Shown: piece after piece, positions 7,365-37,712 of the stretch
Numbering within the stretch: the stretch's first letter is position 1
Layout: every line of letters begins with the position of its first letter
DNA from: Escherichia coli
GTDB lineage: Bacteria; Pseudomonadota; Gammaproteobacteria; Enterobacterales; Enterobacteriaceae
Reading direction: 5' to 3' (one strand)
DNA length: 64,000 bases
Assembly (NCBI RefSeq): GCF_024700885.2
Contig: NZ_CP117016.1
Made by a program: the position numbers and the translations under genes
The notes under the pieces: generated by a model
Database searches by the model: none
Seen by the model: only the letters and a program-made list of their open reading frames with translations
What the model was told of the DNA's origin: nothing

Positions 7365-10300
7365 TCATGACTGATTAAAGCGAAACAGCGGTAACAGGAA
7401 ACGTTGCGACTGTTCAACGATGGCCTCCATTGTCTCTGGTGTTAATTGCCGCCAGAGCCGTTGATACCAGATATCATCACCTTCGCCACGCACCATCATG
7501 TTGCCTTCGTAAGCCTGAAGGAATTTCGTACGGGCTTTTTGCAACGTGGAATCGTCATCCAGCATGGCATCGTTTTGCGCGTCATAACAGGTTTTTAGCC
7601 ACGCGCCGCCACTTTCAGGTAACACCAGCAATGGCGCGGACATTCCTTCACGATACCCCTCAATCAGTTGTGAGAGGTAATGCAAAGCCTGTTCGGCTGC
7701 AAGCGGCGGAAAACGCCACTCGCCGTCTTTGCGTAGAAAAAGGCGACTTTCACCATTACCACCGCTGGCACAGTAGACAAGGTGTTCCAGCCAAAGTTGC
7801 ATTCCCTGTGCCACACTTAATAAAGAGGGACGCCAGCGCAACAGGCCATCCGGCTGCACCTGCGGCAACCAGCCAGTTATCTGCACACCGTTGCAGGCGA
7901 GATCAATTTCCATACTCTGCCCCGGCTGGCGACAGGCAATGACTCTATCGGCAAGCTGCTGCATCTCCTGGCACTGTGTTTCCCAGAAAATTTCACCAAA
8001 AGCGCCATACGGTAAATCCCCTGCCGCCCGGAAGCGGCGGAACAAGCGTTCGGCATCATCCTGCTCAACCAGTGCATTCAATAACTGCTGATTGATTTGA
8101 TAACGGCTAAGCCCTTCCAGAATAAATGGCTCGGTGTCGGGGATTTCGCTGTCTTCGGTACGGAAGTTCACCTGCAAACGCATCTGGAAAAATGCCCGCA
8201 CCGGATGTGCCCAGAATCGTTGTAGCGTTTCCAGCGGCACGGTTTCCGGTAAGGTAAACGGCAGCGGCTGAACAAATTCAGAATGTGCTTTACCAGCCTG
8301 GCTGGCCGCAGGTAGCCATTCACGAGCATAACTTTGTCGTTCGCCTGGCTGGTAGTTTTGCGGATCAAACGGCATTCGGGTATGGAGGCAAGTAAGATGC
8401 GCTTTTACCCTTGCCTCGCTTTCATCACAGTTGAGCGCCTCATCGCCCGGTAGATAATGACTTTGTCCGATGTAGTCGATCAGTTCCTGCACCAGTACCG
8501 ACGGGAAACGTTCACTGTTATCCTGAATGGAACGCCCGATATAGCTGATATAGAGTTTTTGCTGCGCGGAAATTAACGCTTCCAGGAACAGATAGCGGTC
8601 ATCATCGCGACGGCTACGGTCGCCACGCTTCGGTTTCTGGCTCATCAGGTCAAAGCCCAATGGCGCAAGCTGGCGTGGATAAACGCCGTCGTTCATTCCC
8701 AGCAGGCAAACCACTTTGAATGGGATGGAACGCATTGGCATCAGAGTACAAATGTTAACCGGTCCGGCGAGAAAACGCTGGCTGATACGTTCCTGATCCA
8801 GGCGCTGTGCCAGTTCATCACGCAATAGTGACAGCGGCACCGCGTCGCCATACTGCGCACCTAAACCTTCGGCGATAATCGCCTGCCATTGTTGTTCGAT
8901 CAGCGTCATCGCCGCTTCGGTTTCCGCATCCGGCAGGAAGAAGGCGTTGAGCATATCGCGACAAACCGGCAACCACTCTTCCAGCGGACGCTCCTGCGCC
9001 AGCCCGCGACGCCAGATGTTTAGCTGCATTAGCAGTGAAGCCAGATGCCCCACCAGTTCTGCAATTAAGCCGCTCGATTCATCATAAGGTAGAACCGATT
9101 GCCACTCGCCCTGCGCGCTCTCCATCGCGTAGCCCAGCAACATACGCGTCAGGCCAAATCGCCAGGTGTGTTGTCCGGTGGCCGGGAGTTCCAGCTCGCG
9201 AACGTTGTCGTCATCTATCCCCCAACGAATGCCGGATTCGTTGACCCACTGGCGTAAATAACGCAGCCCTTCTTCGGTGATGTCAAACCGCGCCGCCAGC
9301 ACCGGCACATCCAGCAGCGCCAGCACATCCTCTGACACAAAGCGACTGTCAGGCAGTGATAACAGGCTGATAAACGCTTCCAGTACCGGATGTGACTGCC
9401 GCGCCCGACGGTCGGAAATGGCGTAAGGCAGGTAACGATCCGCAGGTGCGCTACCAAACACAGCCTGAATAAACGGACTGTAGCTGTCGATGTCAGCCAC
9501 CATCACGATGATGTCGCGCGGAGTAAGTGTCGGGTCTTCCTCCAGCATCGCCAGCAGGCGATCGTGTAAAACTTCAACTTCACGCTGCGGGCTATGGCAA
9601 ACGTGAAAGGTGATACTGCTATCCAGTGGATCAAGCGGGCGTTTGTTATCGCTACGGGAAAACTCTTCGATGTTCACACCCGCAACGGCGCGGTTTTCCA
9701 GTTCCAGAATGTCAGACTGAATGTTATGCAGCAGGTTATCTGGCGTGACATCGACAAAAGCGTCCAGCTCCTGGCTGCCCTCCAGGTCAGAAAGAAGATA
9801 AATGTAGTCGCGCCCAAGCTTGCCCCATGAGGCCAGCAGCGGGTTACCGACATCCTGTTCACCATCGCTGTTAAAGAGCTGTCCGGCATTTTCGCTGTCG
9901 CGAAATAGCGGTAATTCGCGATCTTCAAAACTGTGTCGGCGCTGGCGAGTCAGCAGTTTCGCCAGATAAGCAGGATCTTTAATGTCGCCCCAGTAATAAC
10001 GGCAGGGGTTGGTAAACAGGAGATGGATTTCAATATGTTTACCCAGCGCCTGTAGCGCCTGGAGATAAACAGGCGGTAACGCGGAAATACCGCATATAAA
10101 GACGCGCGAAGGTAGCCCCGGCGGGCAGGTCGTCGCGGACTCCAGCGTTTCGATAAAGCGCTGATAGAGATTGGCGCGGTGCCAGCGCGGTTGCCCGAGT
10201 TCGTCGGTATATTCCACCAACGCCTTCCACAACGGCGCTTGCCAGGCCTGTGCTTCTCCCAGCCCTTCAACCAAATGTCCTGTTTCCCACTGTGCCAGCC

Positions 10301-10733
10301 AGTCCGGACGATAGACCAGATACTGGTCAAACAGGTCCGCCGCTTTTGAAGAAAGCTGGAACAGTTTTCGCTTGTCGCTATCGTCAGTCAGATAATGCCG
10401 CAACAGGGTAAAGTCTTCGCGCTCCAACAGTTGCGGCAGCAGAGTCATCAGTTTCCAGCTCATGCTCTGTTTGTTAAAGGCGCTCTCTTTGGGGATTTCC
10501 GGTAACACCCGGACGAACATATCCCAGATAAAGCTCGCTGGCAGCGGAAAATCAATGTTTGCCGCAATACCAAACTTTTGCGACAGGGTCATTTGCAGCC
10601 ACTGCGCCATACCGGTACTTTGCACCAGAATCATCTCTGGTTCGAAAGGATCGTCCAGCCGTTCGCGTTCGACAATAAACTCCATCAACGCTTCCAGCAC
10701 GTCCAGACGATTGGAATGGTAGACCCTTAACAT
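7365..10733 (-). CDS. recC: RecBCD subunit RecC
   Basis: 1122-aa ORF starting MLRVYHSNRLDVLEALM; position between ptrA and ppdC. Confidence 0.95.
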   Translation of the reverse strand: MLRVYHSNRLDVLEALMEFIVERERLDDPFEPEMILVQSTGMAQWLQMTLSQKFGIAANIDFPLPASFIWDMFVRVLPEIPKESAFNKQSMSWKLMTLLPQLLEREDFTLLRHYLTDDSDKRKLFQLSSKAADLFDQYLVYRPDWLAQWETGHLVEGLGEAQAWQAPLWKALVEYTDELGQPRWHRANLYQRFIETLESATTCPPGLPSRVFICGISALPPVYLQALQALGKHIEIHLLFTNPCRYYWGDIKDPAYLAKLLTRQRRHSFEDRELPLFRDSENAGQLFNSDGEQDVGNPLLASWGKLGRDYIYLLSDLEGSQELDAFVDVTPDNLLHNIQSDILELENRAVAGVNIEEFSRSDNKRPLDPLDSSITFHVCHSPQREVEVLHDRLLAMLEEDPTLTPRDIIVMVADIDSYSPFIQAVFGSAPADRYLPYAISDRRARQSHPVLEAFISLLSLPDSRFVSEDVLALLDVPVLAARFDITEEGLRYLRQWVNESGIRWGIDDDNVRELELPATGQHTWRFGLTRMLLGYAMESAQGEWQSVLPYDESSGLIAELVGHLASLLMQLNIWRRGLAQERPLEEWLPVCRDMLNAFFLPDAETEAAMTLIEQQWQAIIAEGLGAQYGDAVPLSLLRDELAQRLDQERISQRFLAGPVNICTLMPMRSIPFKVVCLLGMNDGVYPRQLAPLGFDLMSQKPKRGDRSRRDDDRYLFLEALISAQQKLYISYIGRSIQDNSERFPSVLVQELIDYIGQSHYLPGDEALNCDESEARVKAHLTCLHTRMPFDPQNYQPGERQSYAREWLPAASQAGKAHSEFVQPLPFTLPETVPLETLQRFWAHPVRAFFQMRLQVNFRTEDSEIPDTEPFILEGLSRYQINQQLLNALVEQDDAERLFRRFRAAGDLPYGAFGEIFWETQCQEMQQLADRVIACRQPGQSMEIDLACNGVQITGWLPQVQPDGLLRWRPSLLSVAQGMQLWLEHLVYCASGGNGESRLFLRKDGEWRFPPLAAEQALHYLSQLIEGYREGMSAPLLVLPESGGAWLKTCYDAQNDAMLDDDSTLQKARTKFLQAYEGNMMVRGEGDDIWYQRLWRQLTPETMEAIVEQSQRFLLPLFRFNQS

Positions 10734-10745
10734 AGCGGCTCCTGA

Positions 10746-11069
10746 CTACTGACGATTCGGGCAATGCAGGCGGGTCATCTCGCCTTCTCTGCCCCCGGGT
10801 GAAACTAGCGTAACGCTGATGCTGACACATCCCGCCTGCGATGTCTGCATTCGGTTTACCTGCCAGTTGGCAGGTGGCGAAATCGCACGCAGTTGCGTTT
10901 GCTGCCAGCCATGCCGCCAGAGCTGTTGGTACTGATTTCTGCTGGCAAGACTGTTCATTAATGTTCGCTGGAAACCCGATAACGCAGTGACAATCATCAC
11001 CATCAACACCATCGCCAACATTACCTCCGGCAGGCTAAAGCCTTGTTGATTCTTCAGGGAAGCTGACAT
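10746..11069 (-). CDS. ppdC: Prepilin peptidase-dependent protein C (pseudopilin-like)
   Basis: Internal Met of ORF 10746..11156 gives 107 aa [23 protein letters not shown] (N-terminal prepilin-type motif); overlaps ygdB stop. Confidence 0.8.
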
Positions 11070-11461
11070 AACGCCCTCTCTTTCAGCGGACAAAAATCGC
11101 TCCAGCCGCGTGGCGAAAAAACAATGTTTCCATCGATGACTTCTCCTGTTCGCCACAACGAAACGCCTTCATAACCGGCAATCAATAAGGCTTCATTATC
11201 TGCCAATAAACGCAGACAAACCCGGGCACCGGTGGCAGCGTACAGTAAGCACTGAACTGCGGGCTGCGTCTGCCAGGAGTGCATTTTTCCCCACTCCAGC
11301 GCCGACTGAACGATGGCCTGGCGGCGCAATGACTGACTTTCCATGCTCACGCGAGAGGCAAAACTGCGATCCTGTTGGCTCATTCCTTGTAATAGCAAGC
11401 TACCCAAAACCAGCAGCATAAGGACCAGAGCCAGTGACGAAACACCCTTTTCGCGGTTCAC
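11054..11461 (-). CDS. ygdB: Uncharacterized pseudopilin-operon protein YgdB
   Basis: 135-aa ORF with hydrophobic N-terminus; overlapping (coupled) with ppdB and ppdC. Confidence 0.8.
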
Positions 11462-12021
11462 AGGTTGGATCCTGTCACGCTATAACTGGCATCCACCACG
11501 GTTTGCGGATCAGCCTTGCTGGCAGCGTGCATATTAACCGTCAACACCGGCGAGAAACCGCTGACATCCTGTCGGGTAACCTGAAAAGTGTCGATAATGA
11601 TGGCATCCGGATTAGTGACTTTATCCCAGCCCTTACCTTCACAGGATGTCGCACCGCGTAGCGTTTCCAGCACATGCTCCTTCAGACGAAATCCAATCTG
11701 GTCGGACTCTTTTACCGGTTCGCGATCCCAGATACCGTTACTGTTCGCATCCCACTGCACAATGATACAGTCACCCTGTCCGACAATTTCCAGCCCTTCG
11801 CCGGTACAGCTGCCATGACAATAACCCGCCCTCTGGAGATGCTTCGCGACGGTAAATACCCGCAGCCAGATTTCATCTTCCAGCGCCAGCTTACGGGTGC
11901 TCGTTAAACTTTCACGCTGTAACGCAGGCAGAAAGCGTGCTGCCCCCAGCAACAATACGCTACTGATCGCCATAGCAATCAACACTTCCAGCAGAGAAAA
12001 ACCTAGCTCTTTTACAGGCAT
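11458..12021 (-). CDS. ppdB: Prepilin peptidase-dependent protein B
   Basis: Internal Met of ORF 11458..12261 gives 187 aa [21 protein letters not shown] (type IV pilin-like leader/hydrophobic segment). Confidence 0.8.
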
Positions 12022-12482
12022 CCTTCTGTTTCTCCTTGCTGACAAAGCCGGAGTCTTCCCCACGGCGAAACCACCAGCCACCACTCGCCCGTTGAGTTTT
12101 TGAAGCGAATATGCCCGGCCCATGCGGTATTGCGCAGGCCAAAGAAAGCAAGCGAAGGTGTCAGGTCGCTCATTTCGACTTCGGGCCAGCGTGGCACAAA
12201 GACCAATGGTGAACTGCCATGACAGGTATTCGCCCCAGCAACGGAACTCACCAGGCACCATAACGTCCCCTCCCTGATAACACTGATACTGTGGTCGCGG
12301 TTATGCCAGTTGGCATCTTCACGTAAATAGAGCAAATAGTCCCGCGCCTGGCTGGCGGTTTGCCAAAGCCGTTGCGACTGCTGCCAATATTGCCAGCCAT
12401 AGAGCCCACTTGCGCTTAGCATGACCAGAATCAGCATCGCGACCAGCGTTTCAATCAGCGTATAACCACGTTGTGTTTTCAT
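12012..12482 (-). CDS. ppdA: Prepilin peptidase-dependent protein A
   Basis: 156-aa [25 protein letters not shown] (prepilin N-terminal motif). Confidence 0.85.
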
Positions 12483-12617
12483 GCCGGCAGTATGGAGCGA
12501 GGAGAAAAAAAGACGAGGGCCAGTTTCTATTTCTTCGGCACATCTTCCGGACTATTTACGCCGTTGCAGGACGTTGCAAAATTTCGGGAAGGCGTCTCGA
12601 AGAATTTAACGGAGAGT

Positions 12618-12645
12618 AAAAAAAACCGACGCACACTGGCGTCGG
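12618..12645 (-). terminator. Intrinsic terminator downstream of thyA
   Basis: Stem CCGACGC/GCGTCGG (12626-12632 / 12639-12645) followed on the minus strand by a U8 run (plus-strand A-run 12618-12625). Confidence 0.7.
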
Positions 12646-12666
12646 CTCTGGCAGGATGTTTCGTAA

Positions 12667-13461
12667 TTAGATAGCCACCGGCGCTTTAATGCCCGGATGC
12701 GGATCGTAGCCTTCAATCTCAAAGTCTTCGAAACGGTAGTCGAAGATGGATTCGGGTTTACGTTTGATAATCAACTTCGGCAGCGGACGCGGTTCGCGGC
12801 TTAATTGCAGATGAGTTTGATCCATATGATTGCTGTACAGGTGCGTATCGCCACCGGTCCAGACAAAATCACCCACTTCCAGATCGCACTGCTGCGCCAT
12901 CATATGCACCAGTAACGCGTAGCTGGCAATGTTGAACGGCAGGCCGAGGAAGACGTCACAGGAGCGCTGATAAAGCTGGCAAGAGAGTTTGCCGTCTGCC
13001 ACATAGAACTGGAAGAATGCATGGCACGGTGCCAGCGCCATTTTATCCAGTTCGCCTACGTTCCACGCTGAAACAATAATGCGGCGGGAATCCGGGTCGT
13101 TTTTCAGCTGGTTCAGTACCGTAGTGATCTGGTCAATATGACGACCATCCGGCGTTGGCCAGGCGCGCCACTGTTTACCATACACTGGCCCGAGGTCGCC
13201 GTTTTCATCGGCCCATTCGTCCCAGATGGTGACATTGTTTTCGTGTAGATAAGCAATGTTAGTGTCGCCCTGCAGAAACCACAGCAGTTCATGGATGATG
13301 GAACGCAGGTGGCAACGTTTAGTTGTCACCAGCGGGAATCCATCCTGCAGGTTAAAACGCATCTGATGACCAAAAATGGAAAGCGTTCCGGTTCCGGTAC
13401 GGTCGTTTTTCTGTGTGCCTTCGTCGAGCACTTTTTGCATCAGTTCTAAATACTGTTTCAT
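12667..13461 (-). CDS. thyA: Thymidylate synthase
   Basis: 264-aa [34 protein letters not shown]; typical ThyA. Confidence 0.95.
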
Positions 13462-24407: not shown

Positions 24408-24495
24408 AAAAAAAACCTGCGCATCCGCGCAGGTTGGTGCAAGAGACAGGGTACGAAGAGCGTACCGAATAATCTCACCAATCAATACCTCTGGG
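24408..24495 (-). ncRNA. omrA: Small regulatory RNA OmrA
   Basis: Minus strand reads CCCAGAGGTATTGATTGGTGAGATTATTCGGTACGCTCTTCGTACCCTGTCTCTTGCACCAACCTGCGCGGATGCGCAGGTTTTTTTT (88 nt) with terminal GC hairpin plus U-run; between aas and galR. Confidence 0.85.
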
Positions 24496-24610: not shown

Positions 24611-24692
24611 AAAAAAAACCTGCGCATCTGCGCAGGCTGGTGTAATTCATGTGCTCAACCCGAAGTTGACTTCACCTATCAATACCTCTGGG
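24611..24692 (-). ncRNA. omrB: Small regulatory RNA OmrB
   Basis: Paralogous copy sharing the 5' end CCCAGAGGTATTGAT and the 3' terminator CCTGCGCAGATGCGCAGG plus U-run with omrA; about 115 bp from omrA. Confidence 0.85.
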
Positions 24693-35842: not shown

Positions 35843-36475
35843 ATGGGGCTTTGTAGTCGTTATAAAAGTCTTACATGCAATAGTTGCTCAATGCATTGCC
35901 AAATAATGCCAGAAGAGTCACCGCGTTTGCAGTATTGCGCAAACTCGTGTTTTTGTATGTGGCCCGAAGAAAGTTCATATTTTAATCGTGGTGTGGTGGA
36001 AGGTATCTTAACAAAAAACCACAATGCGAGATTAAGCGGATATATTTTTGTCGATTTTTCAGTAAGTTTTTTACGTCTATTCCTTGAAAAAGACTGGATT
36101 GACTATCTTGCAAGTACTGACATGGGGATTGTTTTAGTCAGCGACCGAAATATGCAATCGTTAGCTAACTACTGGCGAAAACACAACTCTGCAATATCTG
36201 CTGTCATATATAATGATGATGGTCTTGATGTTGCCAATGAAAAGATCAGACAACTATTTATTGGTCGTTATTTATCATTTACCAGAGGGAACACATTAAC
36301 TCAGATGGAATTCACCATAATGGGATATATGGTTTCTGGTTATAATCCATATCAGATTGCTGAAGTTCTGGATATGGATATCCGTAGCATCTACGCGTAC
36401 AAGCAACGAATCGAAAAGAGAATGGGTGGTAAAATAAACGAGTTATTTATTCGTTCACATTCGGTCCAACATTGA
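35843..36475 (+). CDS. yqeH: LuxR/FixJ-type HTH transcriptional regulator (ETT2-island remnant)
   Basis: AT-rich ORF; strong RBS GGGAGG 9 nt upstream of the Met at 35843 (ORF track frame opens at 35783); C-terminal LuxR-like HTH segment QMEFTIMGYMVSGYNPYQIAEVLDMDIRSIYAYKQRIEKRMG. Confidence 0.7.
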   Translation: MGLCSRYKSLTCNSCSMHCQIMPEESPRLQYCANSCFCMWPEESSYFNRGVVEGILTKNHNARLSGYIFVDFSVSFLRLFLEKDWIDYLASTDMGIVLVSDRNMQSLANYWRKHNSAISAVIYNDDGLDVANEKIRQLFIGRYLSFTRGNTLTQMEFTIMGYMVSGYNPYQIAEVLDMDIRSIYAYKQRIEKRMGGKINELFIRSHSVQH

Positions 36476-36688
36476 TACTCAATAATCTGCCAGAATCATA
36501 CTCTGCTTATACGGGCATCTATTGAAATGCCCGTATTTTACAAATAAGCAGTACCCCCAAGAGTAAACAACATGGTATTTAAAACCATCACACGAAAAAT
36601 TCAGAAGCATTACGAAATATGAATTTACAAACAGGTGATGCTGCCAACTTACTGATTTAGTGTATGATGGTGTTTTTGAGGTGCTCCA

Positions 36689-36964
36689 GTGGCTTCTGTT
36701 TCTATCAGCTGTCCCTCCTGTTCAGCTACTGACGGGGTGGTGCGTAACGGCAAAAGCACCGCCGGACATCAGCGCTATCTCTGCTCTCACTGCCGTAAAA
36801 CATGGCAACTGCAGTTCACTTACACCGCTTCTCAACCCGGTACGCACCAGAAAATCATTGATATGGCCATGAATGGCGTTGGATGCCGGGCAACTGCCCG
36901 CATTATGGGCGTTGGCCTCAACACGATTTTACGTCACTTAAAAAACTCAGGCCGCAGTCGGTAA
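36689..36964 (+). CDS. insA: IS1 InsA (transposition inhibitor / N-terminal part of InsAB' transposase)
   Basis: 91-aa [43 protein letters not shown] (zinc-finger CxxC...CxxC). Confidence 0.9.
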
Positions 36965-37386
36965 CCTCGCGCATACAGCCGGGCAGTGACGTCATCGTCT
37001 GCGCGGAAATGGACGAACAGTGGGGCTATGTCGGGGCTAAATCGCGCCAGCGCTGGCTGTTTTACGCGTATGACAGTCTCCGGAAGACGGTTGTTGCGCA
37101 CGTATTCGGTGAACGCACTATGGCGACGCTGGGGCGTCTTATGAGCCTGCTGTCACCCTTTGACGTGGTGATATGGATGACGGATGGCTGGCCGCTGTAT
37201 GAATCCCGCCTGAAGGGAAAGCTGCACGTAATCAGCAAGCGATATACGCAGCGAATTGAGCGGCATAACCTGAATCTGAGGCAGCACCTGGCACGGCTGG
37301 GACGGAAGTCGCTGTCGTTCTCAAAATCGGTGGAGCTGCATGACAAAGTCATCGGGCATTATCTGAACATAAAACACTATCAATAA
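36883..37386 (+). CDS. insB: IS1 InsB frame (expressed as InsAB' transposase by -1 frameshift)
   Basis: ORF in the -1 frame relative to insA; slippery A6C motif at 36940-36946 inside the insA/insB overlap. Confidence 0.85.
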
Positions 37387-37638
37387 GTTGGAGTCATTAC
37401 CCAGTCTGTCGATGACATTACAATGCCAGGATGGGCTTTATCTTCACGTTGTGCTATCGCGGTGTGAGAGGTGCAACTGCCGCCAACGTTAGGTTATACT
37501 GTCATCTCACCGTGTAACTTAACGTGACAGTTACTAAGGGCGGATCACAATGGTAGAACTCCTAAGCAAATTAAATAGGTAACTGTTTAAGTTGCTGACA
37601 GAGAAGACTTTTTTGGTCTTCTCCACCTGGGGAGATTC

Positions 37639-37712
37639 TGGAGCGGGCGAAGGGAATCGAACCCTCGTATAGAGCTTGGGAAGCTCTCGTTCTACCATTG
37701 AACTACGCCCGC
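37639..37712 (-). tRNA. glyU: tRNA-Gly (anticodon CCC)
   Basis: Minus strand reads GCGGGCGTAGTTCAATGGTAGAACGAGAGCTTCCCAAGCTCTATACGAGGGTTCGATTCCCTTCGCCCGCTCCA; cloverleaf with anticodon CCC and encoded CCA end. Confidence 0.9.

Follow-up and report, generated by a model that had tools for sequence, protein, structure and literature searches.

A conserved promoter-like element inside ppdC, upstream of recC, in the ppdA-ppdB-ygdB-ppdC minor-pilin operon of Escherichia coli

Why do four small pilin-like genes lie directly in front of recC, the gene for the gamma subunit of exonuclease V (RecBCD), and is recC transcribed together with them? We addressed this question in a 64-kilobase (kb) stretch of an Escherichia coli chromosome of a non-K-12 lineage, referred to below, at its full length, as the window. 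The locus, which runs on the minus strand from 12482 to 10746, is the E. coli ppdA-ppdB-ygdB-ppdC minor-pilin operon. A preliminary description had treated these genes as a cryptic, orphan set of pseudopilin genes co-oriented with recC; its gene names, coordinates and orientation agree with the RefSeq annotation of a strain that is identical over this stretch and carries the same ppdA-ppdB-ygdB-ppdC-recC genes with the same ends. That these genes form an operon, that their products act as minor pilins of a competence pilus, that Sxy controls them and that they adjoin recC is already published. The addition made by the present analysis is synonymous-site evidence for constraint on two promoter-like boxes inside ppdC, seen in 79 of 80 enterobacterial species. 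We propose, with a probability of about 0.82, that the four genes encode the core minor pilins of a competence-type IVa pilus, that they are expressed as a coupled unit under Sxy and Sxy-dependent CRP (CRP-S) control, and that recC has a promoter embedded in ppdC, with possible read-through from the pilin genes.

ppdC (11069-10746, minus strand, 107 residues) ends 12 nucleotides (nt) before the ATG of recC (10733-7365, minus strand, 1122 residues), and the gap between them (10745-10734, minus strand) contains the recC Shine-Dalgarno sequence AGGAG at 10743-10739. A terminator scan from ppdA to recC returned no terminator-like site at or near this junction; two weak minus-strand matches with at most three G-C pairs fall inside ppdB and ygdB, and the total of four sites compares with 3.7 from shuffled sequences. 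Because no terminator follows ppdC, read-through into recC is possible, and the five genes have the structure of a single transcription unit, lying on the same strand with neither a terminator nor room for signals between cistrons. Within ppdC, across codons 75-84, we find a promoter-like element for recC (10847-10819, minus strand). Its putative -35 box, CAGACA (10847-10842, minus strand), matches the sigma-70 hexamer at four of six positions, and its candidate extended -10 element, on the same strand, reads TG-t-CAGCAT (TG at 10827-10826, hexamer CAGCAT at 10824-10819), with A2 and T6 present. The spacer between the two boxes is 17 nt. Transcription from this element would be predicted to start near 10812, approximately 79 nt before the recC ATG.

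The evidence for this element comes from its conservation. We assembled one locus per species from 80 Enterobacteriaceae species, fetched with the first 300 residues of RecC. The exact two-box pattern occupies a fixed position in 79 of these 80 species, the hexamer ending 85 nt before the ATG in 74, and it occurs once in the window against an expectation of zero. We also aligned 74 Enterobacteriaceae sequences over 2.1 kb, beginning at the end of thyA and closing 130 nt into recC; just one run of at least 6 nt, TGTGTCAGCAT (10829-10819), is invariant there. Codon-level analysis places a local peak of synonymous identity at 10865-10806, where values reach 0.72-0.89 compared with about 0.5 elsewhere. 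Among the 116 conserved degenerate codons of the four genes, for which the median codon identity is 0.56, only six reach 0.99 or more, and these six are PpdC Q75 and T76 (CAG ACA) together with C81, V82, S83 and I84 (TGT GTC AGC ATC). Nowhere else between thyA and recC is the DNA under constraint as strong as in these two boxes.

Three observations weigh against reading this block as a recC promoter. The element matches the sigma-70 hexamers at only 7 of 12 positions; a strict sigma-70 scan of 10000-13000 returned no promoter and missed the element, which emerged only from the conservation analysis; and the plus strand of the invariant block reads CTGACA, a 5/6 match to a -35 box that would suit an antisense promoter. 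The modest hexamer match and the plus-strand box, along with a GATG...CATC inverted repeat of 4 base pairs (bp), could be taken to indicate that the block instead binds a regulator, drives antisense transcription or acts as an RNA element. We regard such another role as improbable. The block is composed of two separate constrained boxes at exactly 17-nt spacing and includes the TG, A2 and T6 typical of an extended -10 element, whereas the best -10 candidate on the plus strand lacks A2. The antisense reading frame that covers the block (10841-10990, plus strand) is not conserved and was rejected, as 30 of the 80 species have its ATG and it varies in length between 5 and 52 residues. An attenuator or terminator in the predicted recC leader downstream (10812-10722) was rejected as well, this segment having no unusual RNA structure (z = 0.40). 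By inspection, the block does not fit a LexA box. A literature search with the promoter sequence itself retrieved only unrelated primers. Judged from its sequence and conservation, the element is most likely a sigma-70 promoter in the 3' part of ppdC that supports basal recC expression. It may well be the recC promoter mapped in Finch 1986, a paper reported to put the start of the recC mRNA a few tens of nucleotides ahead of the ATG.

Could recC instead lack a promoter of its own, and be expressed only by read-through from the ppdA promoter in a pure five-gene operon? The absence of a terminator, the 12-nt gap and the conserved junction are all compatible with such an arrangement, and Esquerre et al., in a passage of PMC3936743, handle ppdAB-ygdB-ppdC-recC as one polycistronic mRNA. 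The co-transcription that the preliminary description had raised as a question is therefore already represented in the literature, where the linkage of these genes to recC was noted in 2006 and again in 2025. Dependence of recC on read-through alone is nonetheless quite unlikely, given two boxes that are fixed at synonymous sites and hold sigma-70 spacing ahead of the recC ATG. Furthermore, ordinary cultures contain a constant level of a few RecC molecules per cell (PMC6536506). The competence promoters of ppdD and hofM (yrfD), which need Sxy, are barely detectable under such conditions (PMC1635313), and the ppd operon is likewise regulated by Sxy (PMC12616744). A passage of PMC6536506 that cites Finch 1986 also describes RecC as transcribed from a promoter other than that of RecB. 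The preliminary description had named a strong independent recC promoter combined with a terminator between ppdC and recC as the finding that would overturn co-transcription; one half of this pair, a conserved promoter-like element, is present inside ppdC, and the other half, the terminator, is not found.

The ppd-recC arrangement is not a product of chance, because the ppd locus is found at 95% or higher DNA identity in 5425 of 5426 complete E. coli genomes, and ppdA-ppdB-ygdB-ppdC lie directly upstream of recC, with intact reading frames and near-identical junctions, in all 80 species. In the window, ppdA (12482-12012, 156 residues), ppdB (12021-11458, 187 residues) and ygdB (11461-11054, 135 residues, GTG start) precede ppdC on the minus strand. 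The start of ppdB overlaps the end of ppdA by 10 nt, that of ygdB overlaps the ppdB stop by 4 nt (GTGA) and that of ppdC overlaps the end of ygdB by 16 nt, so the 4-16 nt overlaps and the 12-nt distance to recC of the preliminary description hold. Across species, the ppdA-ppdB overlap is 10 nt in 53 and 7 nt in 23, the ppdB-ygdB overlap is 4 nt in 77 and the ygdB-ppdC overlap is 16 nt in 71, while ppdC is separated from recC by 12 nt in 68 species, 15 nt in seven, 7 nt in four and 13 nt in one (n=80). An AGGAG or GGGAG Shine-Dalgarno sequence follows the ppdC stop in nearly all 80 species, and thyA lies ahead of the ppd genes in all 73 species with enough flank. The ppd proteins are fast-evolving, with between-genus amino-acid identities of 44-77% compared with 90-100% for ThyA and 76-99% for the RecC N-terminus, while gene order and overlaps stay fixed and the cysteines are also kept. 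Within E. coli, the ppdA-ppdC stretch of the window is 100% identical to that of several RefSeq strains.

Upstream, the locus begins behind thyA, the thymidylate synthase gene (13461-12667, minus strand), from which it is separated by a strong intrinsic terminator identified by the terminator scan (12649-12622, minus strand; an 11-bp stem followed by a T run). Both the stem region and the T run are kept in the cross-genus alignment. Downstream of this terminator we propose a candidate CRP-S site for ppdA, TTCTTCGAGACGCCTTCCCGAA (12604-12583, minus strand), on the grounds of its collinearity with the ppdD promoter and the conservation of sequence blocks across genera. CRP-S sites are of the TGCGA-N6-TCGCA type, with C6/G17. 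The ppdA candidate, the best one outside the terminator, aligns without gaps to the best CRP-S candidate of the K-12 ppdD promoter, TTCTTCGTAACGCCTCGCAAAT, which matches this core at 8 of 10 positions, and the element common to the two promoters at this site is TTCTTCGnnACGCCT. Overall, the ppdA and ppdD promoters are alike at 31 of 50 positions; shuffled sequences give 24.6 +/- 1.3, and one shuffle in 1000 attains this value. The blocks TTCGA, CTTCC and CTGCAAC upstream of ppdA are kept across genera. A possible core-promoter region (12569-12553, minus strand) consists of a CTGCAACG box at 12569-12562 and TAAATA at 12558-12553; 13 nt separate CTGCAACG from the CRP-S-like site upstream of it, a spacing that is equal in the ppdD promoter, and TAAA stands at an equal offset in both. 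On the other side of the balance, the ppdA candidate itself matches the CRP-S core at only 6 of 10 positions, and a window-wide search for TGCGA-N6-TCGCA with up to two mismatches did no better than chance, yielding 45 matches against 43 expected, so that the assignment of 12604-12583 as a CRP-S site is a tentative one.

The same region contains a direct repeat, TTGCAAC-N4-CTGCAAC (12578-12562, minus strand), which is kept across genera and may be a promoter element or a factor binding site; its second copy is also found, equally spaced, upstream of ppdD. A sigma-54 promoter was considered for the TTGCA-N6-TGCAA repeat in front of ppdA and rejected by inspection, as the repeat lacks GG and has the wrong spacing. 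No Shine-Dalgarno-like run precedes the ppdA ATG (12507-12483, minus strand: CTCCTCGCTCCATACTGCCGGC-ATG), whereas ppdB, ppdC and recC each have one. This absence fits the reported need to improve the ppdA ribosome binding site for expression (10.1101/856302), and it may contribute, at the level of translation, to the operon being silent.

The four proteins have the features of a core minor-pilin quartet, namely four adjacent, co-oriented pilin-like genes, one of whose products lacks the glutamate at position 5 (Glu+5). PpdA, PpdB and PpdC match their own NCBIfam equivalogs with E-values of 1e-65 to 4e-98 and pass the cut-offs of both Pfam N_methyl (PF07963) and TIGR02532; the Pfam families found across the set are N_methyl, T2SSppdC and DUF2509. 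Each of the three carries the canonical prepilin motif G|(F/Y)xxxE, at PpdA G6|YTLIE (N-terminus MKTQRG|YTLIE), PpdB G7|FSLLE (MPVKELG|FSLLE) and PpdC G10|FSLPE (...NQQG|FSLPE), and this motif is kept across the 80 species. The preliminary description had assigned prepilin-type N-termini to all four genes, which is correct for these three and only loosely so for ygdB. YgdB gives no N_methyl match, is filed only as DUF2509 and has Ala or Leu in place of Glu+5, an absence seen in all genera inspected, although it keeps Gly6 and the hydrophobic helix. Its AlphaFold model nevertheless predicts a pilin fold, in which a long alpha helix at the N-terminus packs against an antiparallel beta sheet. GspK-type minor pseudopilins likewise lack Glu5. 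From these features we infer that PpdA, which gives a weak GspH-like signal, is GspH/FimU-like, that PpdB, with a weak GspJ-like signal, is GspJ/PilW-like, that PpdC, with a GspI-like fold, is GspI/PilV-like, and that YgdB resembles GspK in its lack of Glu5. Family membership does not bear this mapping out, as every score is far under its family cut-off: the best scores, in bits with cut-offs in parentheses, are GspH 18.4 (80), GspJ 20.5 (64.85), GspK 13.6 (130) and PilV 18.1 (52.2). Sequence searches of the PDB returned nothing for PpdA, YgdB or PpdC and, for PpdB, a weak match to the Thermus pilin TTHA1219.

The same low scores argue against the view that the ppd proteins are pseudopilins of a type II secretion system (T2SS), equivalent to the GspH-K set, rather than minor pilins of a type IV pilus. 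In a passage of PMC5131608 citing Cisneros 2012, the four ppd proteins are described as priming PulG pseudopilus assembly in a pulHIJK mutant. Although they can substitute for PulHIJK, the earlier label of pseudopilins gives way to that of minor pilins of a type IV pilus within the competence regulon, and we consider a T2SS identity very unlikely. The type IV pilin gene ppdD has a promoter similar to that of ppdA, the Haemophilus influenzae competence genes comNOPQ are regarded as orthologues of the four ppd genes (PMC12616744, PMC1635313), and the ppd genes belong to the set, together with hofBC, hofMNOPQ and gspO, with which type IV pili were built in E. coli, where the ppd genes work with the Hof machine to assemble PpdD pili and gspO supplies the peptidase of the reconstituted system (bioRxiv 10.1101/856302). 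Unlike the T2SS genes gspH-gspI-gspJ-gspK, the ppd genes lie outside any gsp cluster, and YgdB, at 135 residues, is without the large alpha-domain of GspK, which has about 300 residues.

A pilus requires machinery, and none is encoded in the window. We read its gene content from annotated records that match it at 99.996-99.998% (one mismatch each) and cover all 64 kb; among the annotated genes there is no prepilin peptidase, no pilus or T2SS ATPase, no platform protein and no secretin, as the preliminary description had said of peptidase, secretin and ATPase. It had also suggested searching the genome for matching machinery. ppdD-hofB-hofC (major pilin, ATPase and platform protein) and hofMNOPQ (alignment and secretin genes), both located elsewhere on the K-12 chromosome, are present in 5424 and 5425 of the 5426 E. 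coli genomes, respectively. The ppd quartet is thus an orphan only within the window, its partner genes being core E. coli genes, and the earlier orphan description stands in that local sense and fails at the genome level. Over the stretches searched, the window and strain MLI114 are identical, with 99.998% identity (one mismatch in 42 kb) across 22000-64000, and from their occurrence in at least 5423 of 5426 E. coli genomes we expect ppdD-hofBC and hofMNOPQ to be present in strain MLI114 itself. That the four ppd genes are decaying, functionless remnants of a lost pilus or secretion system, as the lack of assembly machinery nearby, the missing ppdA Shine-Dalgarno sequence and the rapid protein divergence might suggest, is scarcely credible in light of the near-universal occurrence of intact genes, the conserved prepilin motifs, cysteines and overlap structure, the core-genome status of the partner machinery, and a function shown experimentally according to passages of PMC5131608 (citing Cisneros 2012) and 10.1101/856302.

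In some other strains, a secretin and an ATPase are carried by the ETT2 type III secretion island. The window has an IS1 element at the corresponding place, at 36.6-37.6 kb: the element (36634-37401; 768 bp), whose left end is GGTGATGCTGCCAACTTACTGAT, is flanked by yqeH and a tRNA-Gly gene (context 35843-37712), and the same interval of strain 1190 holds approximately 26.6 kb of ETT2 (sctC, sctN, sctV and others). The island is therefore deleted or absent here, probably via IS1. Elsewhere in the window, a tandem pair of OmrA/OmrB small RNA genes occupies the minus strand between aas and galR (24408-24495 and 24611-24692; Rfam RF00079, 96.6 and 86.1 bits), and neither gene is in the retrieved RefSeq feature tables.

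The closest counterpart of the locus is E. coli K-12 ppdA-ppdB-ygdB-ppdC (b2826-b2823), which encodes minor pilins of the PpdD/Hof pilus and has the same location, order, sizes, overlaps and thyA and recC neighbours; only allelic differences separate the two. Another is H. influenzae comNOPQ (HI0938-HI0941, the pulG operon), likewise a set of four small genes that immediately precede recC, share its orientation and belong to the Sxy/CRP-S regulon. In 2006, Cameron and Redfield noted that four prepilin-peptidase-dependent genes of similar size adjoin recC in both Pasteurellaceae and Enterobacteriaceae and treated them as orthologues of H. influenzae pulG-HI0941 (comNOPQ), arguing from the shared recC-adjacent position because the similarity is below BLAST detection (PMC1635313); the conserved comNOPQ-recC and ppdAB-ygdB-ppdC-recC arrangement was restated in 2025 by Helsem et al. 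(PMC12616744). The likeness to Pseudomonas aeruginosa fimU-pilVWXY1E is that of four minor pilins, encoded in a single operon, that prime the assembly of type IVa pili. In contrast to that operon, the E. coli cluster lacks both PilE and a large tip protein of the PilY1 kind, and its proteins are smaller; the sequence relationship found here consists only of the N-terminal motif and one weak match of PpdA to FimU-related families.

We therefore return to the proposed competence-pilus unit with a recC promoter embedded in its last gene. Expression of the ppd genes, as a single unit with translational coupling, would depend on a weak promoter ahead of ppdA that needs an activator, is similar to the ppdD promoter and is a presumptive member of the Sxy/CRP-S regulon. 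The literature places the E. coli ppd operon under Sxy regulation and reports the strongest induction for ppdA (PMC12616744), and a passage of the same article, citing Sinha 2009 and Jaskolska and Gerdes 2015, describes this induction as dependent on both Sxy and cAMP-CRP. Weak, Sxy/CRP-S-dependent expression would explain why the ppd genes look cryptic in laboratory culture. Once made, the four prepilins would be cleaved by the prepilin peptidase GspO or PppA, encoded elsewhere, and the processed quartet would form a priming complex for the polymerisation of PpdD, the major pilin, with assembly performed by the HofB, HofC and HofMNOPQ machine, also encoded elsewhere. Induced ppd transcripts could then run on into recC, no terminator standing after ppdC, while basal recC transcription would start from the promoter embedded in ppdC.

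If the element is a promoter, the ppdC boxes offer a clean example of a promoter constraining coding sequence, and they carry a practical warning, as deletion or recoding of ppdC may disturb recC expression. A further possibility, which we put forward as speculative and less likely to be right than wrong, is that recC is under dual control across the Enterobacteriaceae, with a constitutive promoter in ppdC supplemented by Sxy/CRP-S-induced read-through that raises RecC, and with it RecBCD, while the DNA-uptake pilus is being built. Were this true, DNA import would be tied to what then happens to the imported DNA, whether processing or degradation, and the persistence of the link between minor-pilin genes and recC from Pasteurellaceae to Enterobacteriaceae would have an explanation.

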